Of a DNA stretch of 54,885 bases, positions 21,474 to 30,527 are shown piece by piece (positions within the stretch are counted from its first letter, which is position 1; every line of letters begins with the position of its first letter). Source of the DNA: Candidatus Methylomirabilis sp. (GTDB taxonomy: Bacteria > Methylomirabilota > Methylomirabilia > Methylomirabilales > CSP1-5); NCBI GenBank assembly GCA_012974305.1, contig JAAXQN010000202.1, positions 1 to 54,885 of the forward strand, read 5' to 3'. Position numbers and translations under genes: made by a program. The notes under the pieces were generated by a model. That model saw only the letters and a list, made by a program, of their open reading frames with translations, did no database searches and was not told the origin of the DNA.

Positions 21474-21557
21474 AGTCCAACGTCCAAAGTCTAACCGACA
21501 AAATCTCTGTTTTATTTGGCTTTGGGTCTTGGACTATGGACGTTGGACTTCGACCGT
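21474..21557. repeat. heptamer-periodic inverted array between convergent uppS and pyrD
   Basis: AGTCCAA CGTCCAA AGTCTAA faces TTGGCTT TGGGTCT TGGACTA TGGACGT TGGACTT. 21474-21491 and 21533-50 are 17/18 complementary. The right arm encodes the pyrD C-terminal tail. Confidence 0.85.
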
Positions 21558-22462
21558 GTCTCGGAGGGAATAGCGGCCCCGACCAGCTGGGTGACGGCAG
21601 CGAACCTATGAAGGGTCAGGTAGGACTCGATTCCGGCCAGGACCTTCATTGGGGCCAACGGATCGAGGAAATTGGCGGTTCCCACCTGGACCGCAGTAGC
21701 CCCGGCGAGGAGGAACTCCACTGCATCATTACCGGTCATGATCCCACCGATACCGATGATGGGGGTTTTCACCACCTGGGCTACCTCCCAGACCATCCGT
21801 ACAGCAACAGGACGGATGGCCGGGCCGGAGAGGCCACCGGTGGCTCCGGGCAGTTTTGGCCGGCGGCTGTCGAGGTCAATGACCATTCCGACAATAGTGT
21901 TGATGAGCGAGAGGGCATCGGCCCCCGCGTCGGCAGCGGCTCGGGCAATCACGGTAACATCCGTCACATTGGGTGAGAGCTTGGGAATCACCGGGAGCGG
22001 AGTGGCTTGCCGGACCGACCGGACCACTTCGTAGGTGAGGCGCGGGTCGGTGCCAAAATCGAGTCCCCCGGCTACGTTGGGGCACGAGATATTGACCTCG
22101 ATCCCGGCCACCCCCTCGGCGTCAGAGAGGCGTTTGGCCAGGTCGGCGAACTCCTCTACTGACTTTCCGGCGATGTTGACCAAGAGTGGAGTCGTCAACG
22201 TTCGGAGAAACGGGAGCTTTTGCTTGAGAAAGAGGTCGATCCCGACATTCTGCAGCCCGATGGAGTTGAGCATCCCTCCCGGGGTCTCGGCGATCCTGGG
22301 GGGTGCATTGCCCGGCCGCGGATGCATCGTCACGGTCTTGACGATAATGGCGCCGAGGGCATTGAGATCAAAGAAGGAGGAAAACTCGTCCCCGTACCCG
22401 AAGGTTCCGGAAGCGGTCATCACCGGGTTTTTCAACGGGATTCCGGCAATCTCGACGCCCAT
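21512..22462 (-). CDS. pyrD: dihydroorotate dehydrogenase, class 1B catalytic subunit
   Basis: The start is taken at MGVEIAGIPLKNPVMTASGTFG. The upstream ORF extension is spacer repeat sequence. Confidence 0.9.
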   Translation of the reverse strand: MGVEIAGIPLKNPVMTASGTFGYGDEFSSFFDLNALGAIIVKTVTMHPRPGNAPPRIAETPGGMLNSIGLQNVGIDLFLKQKLPFLRTLTTPLLVNIAGKSVEEFADLAKRLSDAEGVAGIEVNISCPNVAGGLDFGTDPRLTYEVVRSVRQATPLPVIPKLSPNVTDVTVIARAAADAGADALSLINTIVGMVIDLDSRRPKLPGATGGLSGPAIRPVAVRMVWEVAQVVKTPIIGIGGIMTGNDAVEFLLAGATAVQVGTANFLDPLAPMKVLAGIESYLTLHRFAAVTQLVGAAIPSETRSKSNVHSPRPKAK

Positions 22463-22476
22463 GTTTGGACGCTTTT

Positions 22477-22595
22477 CCGATGGCCGATGACGGCTCGACT
22501 GAGCTCGCCGAAGTCCGACGACCGATGACCGGCGACGATTCCGTCCTTTGCGTGAACGGTCTCCCTCTGGACGCTGAACGCTGAGCCCTGAACCC
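22477..22595. repeat. heptamer-periodic array in the pyrK-pyrD spacer
   Basis: In one 7-nt phase: CCGATGG CCGATGA ... TCGCCGA AGTCCGA CGACCGA TGACCGG ... TGGACGC TGAACGC TGAGCCC TGAACCC. Confidence 0.85.
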
Positions 22596-22608
22596 TTTTT
22601 CTTTCCCT

Positions 22609-23490
22609 TCACCAGGCTATCTCCCGGGCGTCGAAGGCCGGCCCATCCTTGCAGCACAATTTATATGATATCGTTGACTGTCGAGCAGCCAGCTGTTCTT
22701 TGACTGACTGCTTCACGGGGATGACGCAGCCCATGCATGCCCCAAAGCCACAAGCCATAGAGGCCTCCAAAGAGACCTGGCAGGGGATTTGAAATCGGTC
22801 GGCGATCTGAGCAACGGCGTGGAGCATCGCGTGCGGACCACAGGCATAGATTATTAACCCTTGTCGGCTGGTCTGTGTCTTGAGATGTGCTTCCAAGAGA
22901 TCCACAACGAGCCCTCGATGGCCGACGCTGCCATCTTCGGTGGCGACATGCACCTTTGCCCTAGCCTTACGAAGATCGGTGAGACAAAGAACATCATCGG
23001 AGGTCTTGCCCCCGACAAAGGCAACTACTTTCCGTCGACCTTTGTCAGATGAGCGCCGGTTGGTTTTCCCTTGCTGTGAACCTCGAAGGGTGAACTGTGA
23101 ACGTGCGAGCATTTCGGCGAGGGCCACCACCGGAGGAACCCCGATGCCTCCGGCGACCAGCAGGGCTGTGGTGAGACTGGGCGGCACGTGATAGCCATTC
23201 CCCAGTGGACCCAGGAGGTCCACCCGATCTCCCGGCTTAAGGCGGGAGAGGGCTCTGGATCCCTTCCCCATCAATTTGTAAAAGATCTCCACCATGTGAC
23301 CGCCTTTTCTGTTGCTCTCGCGTCGGACCCTCAGAATGCTATAGGCCCTTGGCAGAAAGGGGTCGAACAATCCTGAAGGTTTCACCATGACGAACTGTCC
23401 AGGCTGAAAGCTGAGGGATTCTGAGGTAAAGCGCTGGAGGAAATAATCCGGGTGGAACCTTTGGAGGGATTGCACCTCAACTTGTTGCAT
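22609..23490 (-). CDS. pyrK: dihydroorotate dehydrogenase electron-transfer subunit
   Basis: 293 aa with a FAD/NAD-binding fold and a C-terminal Cys cluster (CGFGACMGC). Contains an extra basic loop encoded by a heptamer array. Confidence 0.85.
   Translation of the reverse strand: MQQVEVQSLQRFHPDYFLQRFTSESLSFQPGQFVMVKPSGLFDPFLPRAYSILRVRRESNRKGGHMVEIFYKLMGKGSRALSRLKPGDRVDLLGPLGNGYHVPPSLTTALLVAGGIGVPPVVALAEMLARSQFTLRGSQQGKTNRRSSDKGRRKVVAFVGGKTSDDVLCLTDLRKARAKVHVATEDGSVGHRGLVVDLLEAHLKTQTSRQGLIIYACGPHAMLHAVAQIADRFQIPCQVSLEASMACGFGACMGCVIPVKQSVKEQLAARQSTISYKLCCKDGPAFDAREIAW
23074..23108. repeat. heptamer array inside the pyrK coding sequence
   Basis: CTGTGAA CCTCGAA GGGTGAA CTGTGAA CGTGCGA. It encodes part of ARSQFTLRGSQQGKTNRRSS. 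Confidence 0.7.
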
Positions 23491-29312: not shown

Positions 29313-29316
29313 TAGC

Positions 29317-29452
29317 CGTTCACCGTAAACCGTTGACCGATGACCGTAAAGCGATGCTTGCTACTATCGATGATCGAGTGTCCATGTCCGGTGACCTTAA
29401 GAGACCCGAAAACGTGTTCTTCTTCGGTAGTCGGTCATCGGACATCGGTCAA
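29317..29452. repeat. two-arm heptamer element in the pyrB-pyrC spacer
   Basis: CGTTCAC CGTAAAC CGTTGAC CGATGAC CGTAAAG CGATGCT ... CGGTAGT CGGTCAT CGGACAT CGGTCAA. The arms are imperfect inverse complements. Confidence 0.9.
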
Positions 29453-29456
29453 CGCC

Positions 29457-30389
29457 TTAGTTGGTGGCCGCGTGTCCGCCGGTCAAAAGATAGAGCAGCG
29501 CCATACGGATGGCCACCCCGTTGGTGACCTGGTCGAGGATGAGGCTGTAGGGACCATCGGCAACCTCCGGGGCGATCTCGACACCTCGATTGAGAGGCCC
29601 TGGGTGCATAATCAGTACGCCTTCCCTCGCCTTTTTCACACGCTCGACGGTGAGACCGAAGAGCCGGCTATACTCACGGAGCGAGGGGAGAAGGGTGGGC
29701 CCCTGCCGCTCCCTCTGGATTCGGAGCATCATAATGACGTCGGCATCCGCGATGGCCGCTTCCACGTCGGTGGTGACCTGGGCGCCGAGTTCCTCGGGGT
29801 GTCGGGGCAGTAGCGTGGGCGGGCCTGCCACGCGAACATCCATTCCTACCTTGCGCATAGCCTGGATCCCGGATCGCGCGACCCGGCTGTGGCTGATATC
29901 TCCCACGATGGCGACCGTGAGGCCTTTTAAACGTCCCAGACGCTCTCGGATGGTGAGCAGGTCGAGGAGGGCCTGGGTGGGATGCTCGTGGGCCCCGTCC
30001 CCGGCGTTTATGATCGAGGCTTGGAGGCGATCGGCCAGGATCTTGGGCGCCCCCGGGACCGGGTGGCGAATGACCACCACATCCGGTCGCATGGCCTGAA
30101 GGGTTTTCCCAGTATCGAGGAGGGACTCGCCCTTGGTCACCGAAGAAACGGTTGTGGAAATGTTGATGACATCGGCACTGAGCCATTTGCCGGCAATCTC
30201 GAACGAGGTCCGCGTGCGGGTGCTCGGCTCGTAAAAGAGGTTGATCAGGGTTTTTCCTCGCAGCGCAGGGACCTTCTTGATGTCTCGAGAGGCGATCTCT
30301 TTCATCGAGTCAGCGGTGTCCAGGATCAGATGGATCTCATCCGACTCCAGCTCTCGGATCGTTAGCAGATCCTTTCGCTTCAAGGCCAT
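29457..30389 (-). CDS. pyrB: aspartate carbamoyltransferase catalytic subunit
   Basis: 310 aa with the STRTR and HPTQ motifs. Confidence 0.9.
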
Positions 30390-30398
30390 CTTATTCTC

Positions 30399-30527
30399 CG
30401 TTCACCGATCACCGTAAACCGATGACAGTTAAAATCGATCACCATTCACCGATGTCCGATGACCGTAACAGACCGACTAATCTGTTGTTCTTCGGCCGTC
30501 GGTCGCCGGTCATTGGTCGTCGGTCGT
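30399..30527. repeat. two-arm heptamer element in the pyrR-pyrB spacer, overlapping the pyrR 3' end
   Basis: CGTTCAC CGATCAC CGTAAAC CGATGAC ... CGATCAC CATTCAC CGATGTC CGATGAC CGTAACA GACCGAC ... CGGCCGT CGGTCGC CGGTCAT TGGTCGT CGGTCGT. Confidence 0.9.

Follow-up and report, generated by a model that had tools for sequence, protein, structure and literature searches.

Short tandemly repeated repetitive (STRR) sequences are cyanobacterial heptanucleotides, reportedly described by Mazel et al. in 1990; we know of no concentration of STRRs in a single operon. Other short elements are imperfect palindromes: repetitive extragenic palindromic (REP) sequences, bacterial interspersed mosaic elements (BIMEs) and REPINs are located between the cistrons of operons, and Rickettsia palindromic elements (RPEs) insert in frame at tolerant sites of protein-coding genes. 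A review of REPs is available (PMC3333891). REPs and RPEs are defined sequence families without internal 7-nt periodicity, and REPs are linked to RAYT transposases. PyrR-binding attenuators are stem-loops of the leader and, in Bacillus, of the inter-cistronic spacers of the pyr operon. Heptameric repeats are reported to be the most over-represented long simple repeats in bacteria, and polymerase slippage has been proposed to account for them (PMC4679880, PMC4692102). STRRs are cited as three heptanucleotides in Calothrix PCC 7601 (PMC4692102). In Xanthomonas, GGGAATC arrays are transcribed, occur as inverted pairs in 70-75 cases and are conserved in 83% of their positions between two species, with varying length and sequence (Rehm et al. 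2015, PMC4692102). For the TAACTGA direct repeats of marine Beggiatoaceae a role in binding Csp, S1 or CsrA was proposed (MacGregor 2015, PMC4679880). Here we describe heptanucleotide arrays in the pyrimidine (pyr) operon of Candidatus Methylomirabilis sp., contig JAAXQN010000202.1; its 54,885 nucleotides are referred to as the window. As far as a literature search showed, no such arrays have been described in Methylomirabilota.

The whole operon is carried by the minus strand in the order pyrR-pyrB-pyrC-carA-carB-pyrK-pyrD. Eight array sites were found in it, five in spacers and three in frame within genes, and two further arrays lie outside. Coordinates, strand and measurements are as follows (lag-7, self-match at a distance of 7 nt; TRF, Tandem Repeats Finder).

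30390-30530, minus strand, pyrR-pyrB element: lag-7 0.52, z 6.6; inverted repeat I9; fold -49.5 kcal/mol, z -2.2
29313-29456, minus strand, pyrB-pyrC element: lag-7 0.49, z 6.3; inverted repeats I1, I4 and I6; fold z -3.0
29162-29196, minus strand, in-frame direct array inside pyrC: lag-7 0.61, reached by 0 of 2000 shuffles
27325-27432, minus strand, in-frame hairpin inside carA: inverted repeat I5; fold -47.5 kcal/mol, z -3.2
26613-26703, minus strand, carA-carB element: lag-7 0.64, z 6.7; TRF score 47; fold -33.8 kcal/mol, z -2.8
23040-23100, minus strand, degenerate in-frame array inside pyrK: located in an insertion absent from solved PyrK structures
22465-22608, minus strand, pyrK-pyrD composite: lag-7 0.46, z 4.3; fold z -0.1
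21474-21549, no strand assigned, uppS/pyrD hairpin between convergent genes: inverted repeat I3; lag-7 0.51, z 5.5; fold z -3.7
37905-37990, plus strand, array hairpin outside the operon: fold z -3.9
39261-39303, plus strand, direct array outside the operon: CCGTGAA four times; TRF score 53; lag-7 0.67, reached by 0 of 2000 shuffles

A preliminary description of this DNA had reported five gaps built of 7-nt units. It left out the carA hairpin, the pyrC array, the degenerate pyrK array, both arrays outside the operon and the location of the operon on the minus strand. The periodicity of the five gaps passed the shuffle test: dinucleotide shuffles give lag-7 values of 0.24-0.27 only, z ranges from 4.3 to 6.7 and the observed value was reached by 0 of 1000 shuffles, even when compared with the best of lags 4-14. 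Tandem Repeats Finder independently reported period-7 arrays at 22515, 22567, 26628, 29316, 29431 and 30492. A strict scan of the whole window returned 9 strong period-7 segments, 7 of them in the operon, and 0-3 segments for other periods; another scan returned 13 period-7 segments versus 0-3 for periods 5, 6 and 8-12. At least four unrelated unit families occur together in the operon of the window. The ends of pyrR and pyrD, like the starts of pyrB and pyrC, are adjoined or overlapped by its arrays.

Inverted arms had been proposed for most elements. They are real at four of the five gaps, and inverted repeats I1, I3, I4, I5 and I9 are located in array sites; the proposal fails for the pyrK-pyrD spacer, which consists of two direct arrays. 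Folding of the transcripts yielded long imperfect hairpins at most gaps (z -2.2 to -3.7). In total, RNA folds are more stable than those of shuffles at six array sites, with z between -2.2 and -3.9, while the pyrK-pyrD, pyrC-internal and 39261 arrays showed no fold. The carA-carB element was described as purely direct, which has to be corrected: its two halves keep the GC phase yet are able to pair.

The individual sites differ in construction. On the sense strand, the 5' arm of the pyrR-pyrB element reads CCACGAC CGACGAC CAATGAC CGGCGAC CGACGGC and covers the last five codons and the stop codon of pyrR. After the loop about eight CGGTNAN units follow, ending in the Shine-Dalgarno sequence of pyrB (CGGAGAA). 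The arms at 30448-30465 and 30507-30524 were confirmed as inverted, and the element is identical among same-species contigs. The pyrB-pyrC element has a non-repetitive loop of 78 nt between two arms of 33 nt each, which belong to the CGGTCAT/ATGACCG family; the arms (29314-29346 and 29425-29457) were likewise confirmed as inverted, I1, I4 and I6 being 73-86% complementary. The carA-carB element shows AGCAGTC four times on the plus strand (26628-26654), followed by GC-phased GCCGGCA GCCGATA GCTGGCA GCGGACG. The pyrK-pyrD composite joins a direct GGTTCAG-type array (22563-22599) to CGGTCAT-type units (22507-22537) without a hairpin. The uppS/pyrD hairpin is built of AGTCCAA units in two 21-nt arms with 90% complementarity (21474-21494 and 21529-21549), one of which lies within the 3' end of the pyrD reading frame. 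Arrays were found at the pyrB-pyrC junction of 7 of 9 relatives and at the pyrK-pyrD junction of 7 relatives, and relative L167 carries the AGTCCAA unit at the same uppS/pyrD position as the window.

The arrays within genes are all located in insertions. In pyrC the sense strand reads GGTTCAG GGTTCAG GGTCCGG and encodes a 10-residue stretch of the N-terminal loop; this segment is an insertion relative to solved dihydroorotases, and L167, L171 and L089 carry arrays at the same offset. The carA hairpin consists of a 5' arm of CCGACGA units, a centre encoding QLDLF and a 3' arm of CGGTNNN units. It corresponds to about 30 extra residues in comparison to E. coli CarA, inserted in the linker joining the N-terminal and glutamine amidotransferase (GATase) domains. 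An AlphaFold2 model of CarA gave no information on the order of the insertion: the mean predicted local distance difference test (pLDDT) score of the model is 50, and its whole N-terminal half is low-scoring. The pyrK-internal array reads CGTTCAC AGTTCAC CCTTCGA GGTTCAC on the sense strand. Taken alone, the window gives a lag-7 value of 0.31 here, which is not significant; the homologous position holds clear (GGTTCAC)4 arrays in L167, L087 and L171.

Outside the operon, the hairpin at 37905-37990 consists of CGGTCGT/GACCGAT units of the same family as operon units. It is located 3' of a gene for adenine deaminase and contains, as its core, a terminator-like stem with a T run behind it. The direct array at 39261-39303 ends 3 nt short of the start codon of the ORF at 39306, extends into its Shine-Dalgarno sequence AGGAG and forms no hairpin. 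A pyrimidine link of these two arrays was considered and rejected, the neighbours being the adenine deaminase, a metal-dependent hydrolase and one further ORF.

We analyzed the distribution of arrays over pyr and other spacers. With a strict threshold, arrays are present in 4 of the 6 pyr-adjacent spacers of the window and in 2 of 28 others (p = 0.004); once the pyrD-distal hairpin is included, the pyr fraction rises to 5 of 6. Nine orthologous operons with CarA 68-85% identical were gathered by exact-protein look-ups, and four loci away from the operon in the relatives' genomes, 85 kb in total, served as controls. For these Methylomirabilota relatives we found arrays in 13 of 33 pyr spacers and 7 of 114 others (p = 1e-5, a value that overstates the evidence since the sites of related genomes are not independent). 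Within genes the counts are 27 arrays in 67 kb of pyr coding sequence versus none in 163 kb of other coding sequence; as the lineages share ancestry, the 27 arrays represent about five independent sites. Array density is thus not similar in most spacers, and the link to a single operon proposed in the preliminary description holds. Concentration in the operon is a real, clade-wide property of the arrays. This specificity also includes direct arrays of coding loops, which cannot share an RNA-hairpin function, pointing to a common cause at the DNA level.

Orthologous spacers were compared on a map of ten related operons, in which the same sites carry arrays and the units differ by lineage. Shared sites are the pyrB-pyrC spacer, the N-terminal loop of PyrC, the CarA linker, the carA-carB spacer, the pyrK-pyrD spacer and the end of the operon, as well as two to four positions within PyrK. 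All of the best 120 homologues have the CarA insertion with the conserved centre Q-L-[DSN]-L-F, and its arms read like translated heptamers, e.g. SKFQVPGS. CarA homologues show lengths of 400/407/414/421/428 and 424/431/438/445 residues, the steps of 7 residues corresponding to three units (21 nt); modulo 7, 65 of 119 lengths fall into one residue class. Five unit families were found at the carA site. Mean arm complementarity scores are 27 in cis versus 16 in trans: every 5' arm finds its complement in its own 3' arm, not in a 3' arm of another family, showing that the arms change together.

Units are also shared between sites of one genome. L007 carries an AGAGCCG unit and L171 a CTCAGTC unit at three operon sites each, and the A and B unit families occupy 4-7 sites each in the window and in L167. 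The presence of one new unit at several sites of the same genome's operon implies copying between sites. Six same-species contigs showed no differences in array length. The copy-number instability expected of the heptamer class was therefore not seen among them, and contingency-locus behaviour was rejected on this basis. Length variation is confined to comparisons between species, with 21-nt steps in CarA.

Within the operon, the only local differences among these contigs are recombination-like patches at two sites. At the carA element a patch of 125 nt is divergent in L003 and L006. The second tract measures about 620 nt (22860-23490 of the window), covers pyrK over its 5' two-thirds and is about 18% diverged in L003; 21 nt are deleted in the insertion and 9 nt inserted elsewhere. 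Both have the appearance of recombination from a diverged lineage, not of hypermutation. A hypervariable patch was also noticed away from the arrays at 32147-32470, between the ORF at 31304-31987 (minus strand) and ligA (32219, plus strand), where about 135 substitutions and many small indels separate L001 and L005 from the window; elsewhere these contigs are >99.5% identical to it.

Spacer arrays are absent from the Methylomirabilis-like relatives L170 and L088, whose junctions measure only 15-35 nt. Heptamer arrays were on the other hand found in the same CarA inter-domain linker of three unrelated lineages (GC content 40-65%, CarA 57-64% identical):

L106, 10502-10628: CarA-linker array
L107, 706-755: CarA-linker array
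L149, 10512-10548: CarA-linker array

One of them consists of about 15 direct AGACCAG units without an inverted partner. We take the presence of arrays in unrelated lineages as support for the CarA linker being a permissive site.

Site conservation, unit turnover, joint change of arms, unit sharing within a genome and 21-nt coding steps are all observed. The reading we favor, with roughly even confidence, is that of self-renewing heptanucleotide arrays, mostly inverted pairs, which are kept by processes acting on the DNA and not by a sequence-specific function. Slippage of 7-nt units during replication would let arrays grow and shrink. Imperfect arms may be repaired against each other by intramolecular template switching (quasipalindrome correction), and units could be copied, neighbours homogenised and new arrays seeded by ectopic events, either template switching or gene conversion, that reach over a few kb. 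Such local copying would sustain the array cluster within the operon. Selection would then act as a filter only, admitting arrays in spacers, at gene ends and, in frame, in tolerant surface loops such as the CarA linker, the PyrC N-terminal loop and the PyrK insertions. The hairpins may change the decay of pyr mRNA or the translation of downstream cistrons, as a side effect and not as the cause of their presence. The lack of spacer arrays in L170 and L088 shows them to be dispensable, in support of maintenance at the DNA level.

Several points weigh against this explanation. Local spread by template switching is deduced rather than observed, and the explanation is ad hoc on why, within about 250 kb of sequence comprising flanks and controls, this operon alone is affected. 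For unselected repeats, persistence at six or more sites through about 30% CarA divergence is long. Selection for hairpins would likewise yield complementary arms. The absence of copy-number polymorphism among the six same-species contigs indicates that slippage is not fast, and the conserved QLDLF centre suggests that at least the CarA insertion is under constraint at the protein level. The non-independence of related genomes mentioned above has to be added to this list.

As an alternative, the arrays could be functional RNA hairpins of the polycistronic pyr mRNA, which is roughly 10 kb long, and set the relative expression of its seven genes. They might shield upstream segments from 3' exonucleases, provide RNase III or RNase E sites or occlude downstream ribosome-binding sites; in a variant, expression would be tied to transcription-translation coupling, like in the E. 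coli pyrBI and pyrE attenuators. We regard this as possible but doubtful. The six sites that fold beyond shuffles, the strong clade-wide concentration in the operon and the maintenance of complementary arms despite unit turnover would be expected of such hairpins. In addition, 3' arms finish in or just 5' of the Shine-Dalgarno sequences of pyrB, pyrC and carB, and for the carA hairpin the sense strand gives a fold that is more stable by 10.8 kcal/mol. If RNA pairing were selected, G·U mismatches should however be favored, and we therefore compared G·U and A·C in the stems of 20 hairpins of known transcribed strand. With 30 G·U, 35 A·C and 81 transversions no asymmetry was detected in this set; the symmetry fits an origin at the DNA level, or at least lends no support to RNA selection. 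Further, the pyrK-pyrD, pyrC-internal and 39261 arrays fail to fold, ribosomes would melt arrays inside ORFs, L170 and L088 with their short junctions lack spacer arrays altogether, and arm orientation and composition differ between the window and L167. Nor do the operon hairpins resemble terminators or PyrR sites. None of 11 terminator-like sites coincides with an operon array hairpin and no T runs follow these hairpins, so that intrinsic terminators were rejected. PyrR attenuators in the spacers were rejected as well: RF00515 fits the leader only, and the spacers gave no match at E <= 1. The preliminary description had suggested mRNA processing or stability, or a periodically binding RNA-binding protein. 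This suggestion is not borne out, given the symmetric mismatches, the turnover of units, the two relatives without spacer arrays, and several direct arrays in coding loops for which a role as RNA hairpin is implausible.

A further possibility, which we consider rather unlikely, is either a dedicated, clade-wide layer of pyr control or operon-specific mutation driven by pyrimidine starvation. In the first version hairpins of 7-nt units, placed at each junction as well as within carA and pyrK, would produce graded expression over the length of the 10-kb transcript by sensing the closeness of ribosome and RNA polymerase, hence UTP and CTP supply, or by recruiting a protein of 7-nt register. In the second, maximal pyr transcription would meet stalled replication, and the conflicts would generate and renew arrays.

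The arrays might also be periodic binding platforms, with one 7-nt unit of single-stranded RNA or DNA per protein subunit and binding that melts or locks the hairpins. Candidates would be a cold-shock-domain or S1-type OB-fold protein or an oligomeric regulator. The strict 7-nt register despite varying sequence, the one triplet per unit conserved in the main family (CGG in CGGTNAN), the genome-specific unit families and the reported binding of CspB at about one heptamer per monomer (discussed in PMC4679880) are in line with this idea. It is nevertheless distinctly unlikely: at least four unrelated unit families per operon and at least five at one site across the clade would demand either several specificities that co-evolve or none, the operon has no candidate gene linked to it, and the known PyrR motif is confined to the leader. 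Least probable of all are copies of a mobile non-autonomous element (MITE, REP/REPIN or RPE-like) with a transposase encoded elsewhere and repeated insertion into the operon, also in frame: the palindromic build, the insertions across the stop codons of pyrR and pyrD and in coding loops like those of RPEs, the relatedness of the pyrR-pyrB and pyrB-pyrC copies (CGTTCAC CG.. TAAACCG.TGAC) and the family member at 37905 would fit, but lengths, loops and units all vary between elements, copies are rare outside the operon, with two more in the about 55 kb of the window, the sites are inherited vertically with gradual unit turnover around the QLDLF-coding centre and no re-insertion, and neither common termini nor flanking duplications were visible on reading the sequences, which was not a systematic test.

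The genes of the operon were assigned by NCBIfam, in agreement with the identities given in the preliminary description. All are located on the minus strand:

30510-31085, minus strand, pyrR
29457-30389, minus strand, pyrB
27966-29312, minus strand, pyrC
26704-27969, minus strand, carA
23477-26612, minus strand, carB
22609-23490, minus strand, pyrK
about 21512-22464, minus strand, pyrD
31085-31224, minus strand, upstream of pyrR (RF00515 and promoter/terminator scan): promoter-like TTGACA-17-TAAATT, then a PyrR-binding leader with terminator; no array

The leader at 31085-31191 is a full-length match to RF00515 with 49.8 bits (E = 1.2e-4), below the gathering score of 54; a PyrR site just under this score suggests that RF00515 under-calls the clade. 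Two tRNA genes, 7707-7781 and 12582-12654 (minus strand), are all that Rfam matches in the window at its gathering threshold. The nearest genomes are metagenome-assembled genomes (MAGs) of Candidatus Methylomirabilota/Methylomirabilales, with identities of 78% for PyrB and up to 86-99% for CarA. The pyrC-carA junction was described as the only one without an array. It is indeed an ATGA overlap without spacer; it is not the sole one, as carB and pyrK also leave no spacer and overlap by 14 nt (23477-23490). In the window carB is broken at 24663/24664 into ORFs 24531-26612 and 23477-24673. The same-species contigs L001, L002 and L004 have 137 additional bases at this position and an intact CarB of 1090 residues, indicating a 137-nt deletion or an assembly error in the window. 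Outside the operon, a 905-residue fusion protein of AMP-binding, acyl-carrier and acyltransferase parts is encoded at 46837-49554 (minus strand); its length is nearly invariant among homologues, unlike the quantised lengths of CarA.

Junctions of the operon hold foreign genes in some relatives. At the carA-carB junction a tautomerase, a PhdYeFM/ParE toxin-antitoxin pair and a methyltransferase were found, and in L172 pyrR and pyrB are parted by three genes. Foreign genes at the junctions suggest that these are insertion-tolerant in general. The insertions are located as follows:

L168, 11284-11469: foreign-gene insertion at a junction
L169, 11393-12269: foreign-gene insertion at a junction
L170, 11200-11859: foreign-gene insertion at a junction
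L172, 2343-7535: insertion at a junction

Heptamer hairpin arrays of the same build occur in many phyla, among them Geobacteraceae, Acidobacteriota, Thermoanaerobaculia and Firmicutes. Units include GTTCGAT (Geobacteraceae MAG), GTTTCAG and GTCCAAG (Acidobacteriota MAG), TGCAGAA (Thermoanaerobaculia) and AGTCAGG (Desulfotruncus), and units like AGTCCAA, CAGCAGT and GGTTCAG recur in distant phyla. Among spacers with periodic arrays, period 7 accounts for 29, versus 17, 10, 6 and 3 for periods 5, 6, 8 and 9. Several out-of-clade arrays adjoin pyrB or carA, and heptamer hairpins fill pyrR-pyrB or pyrB-pyrC spacers in MAGs of Geobacteraceae, Acidobacteriota and Thermoanaerobaculia:

L036, 9200-10010 and 10920-11040: hairpin spacers
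L039, 9880-10010: hairpin spacer
L021, 2630-2800: hairpin spacer

Two hairpins of L036 are followed by T runs. The arrays beside pyrB in Geobacteraceae, Acidobacteriota and others and a 2.5-fold higher density per kb raised the idea of a link between heptamers and pyr genes across phyla. Per spacer the counts are 18 of 240 versus 23 of 535 (odds ratio 1.8, p = 0.05); the link is weak and is not claimed.

The clade bears on the questions of where heptamer arrays originate, why the number is seven and what their function is. With about eight homologous sites in one essential operon sampled in dozens of lineages, it represents a compact natural experiment in which slippage, arm-to-arm correction and inter-site transfer can be reconstructed and tested. 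It also shows that housekeeping enzymes, here CarA, PyrC and PyrK, can acquire lasting insertions from heptamer repeats. Should the operon specificity prove functional, it would represent a new mode of pyr regulation.

In comparison to known systems, the arrays show the head-to-tail 7-nt units, intergenic bias and frequent inverted pairs that define the heptameric tandem-repeat class; their in-frame placement within genes is unusual for it. The preliminary description had likened them to STRR heptamers and REP-like palindromes, and this likeness stands: a recognised class exists, with inverted pairs in Xanthomonas (PMC4692102, PMC4679880). Tandem 7-nt units that are largely intergenic, lie near ORF ends and form pairs capable of stem-loops are common to the Xanthomonas GGGAATC arrays and those described here. 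Xanthomonas however has a single G-rich, quadruplex-forming unit at about 190 sites genome-wide, whereas the present arrays use several units that are not of the quadruplex type, are few outside the operon, also lie in frame within genes and have had the unit itself replaced between lineages. With STRRs the arrays share several heptamer families per genome and non-coding tandem arrays, some in both orientations and able to form helices. STRRs differ in their cyanobacterial host, in their units (CCCCAAT and others) and in their dispersal over the genome; our elements are not STRRs proper, since the host belongs to Methylomirabilota and the units CGGTCAT, GGTTCAG, AGCAGTC and AGTCCAA are not STRR1-3 consensus units. 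The Beggiatoaceae repeats resemble them in lying just 5' of start codons and, in a few cases, within ORFs, giving 7-residue peptide repeats, but consist of the single unit TAACTGA, are nearly all direct (1 inverted set in 170) and show no operon preference over about 170 sites. Unlike REPs and RPEs, our elements have tandem arrays as arms and lack a family consensus; unlike PyrR attenuators (RF00515), the spacer arrays have neither the binding-loop motif nor a terminator T run. In summary, the elements are of the same kind as cyanobacterial STRRs and Xanthomonas GGGAATC arrays. New are their clade-wide concentration in a single operon, the in-frame arrays quantised by 21 nt in three housekeeping enzymes, and the replacement of units at fixed sites with covarying arms.

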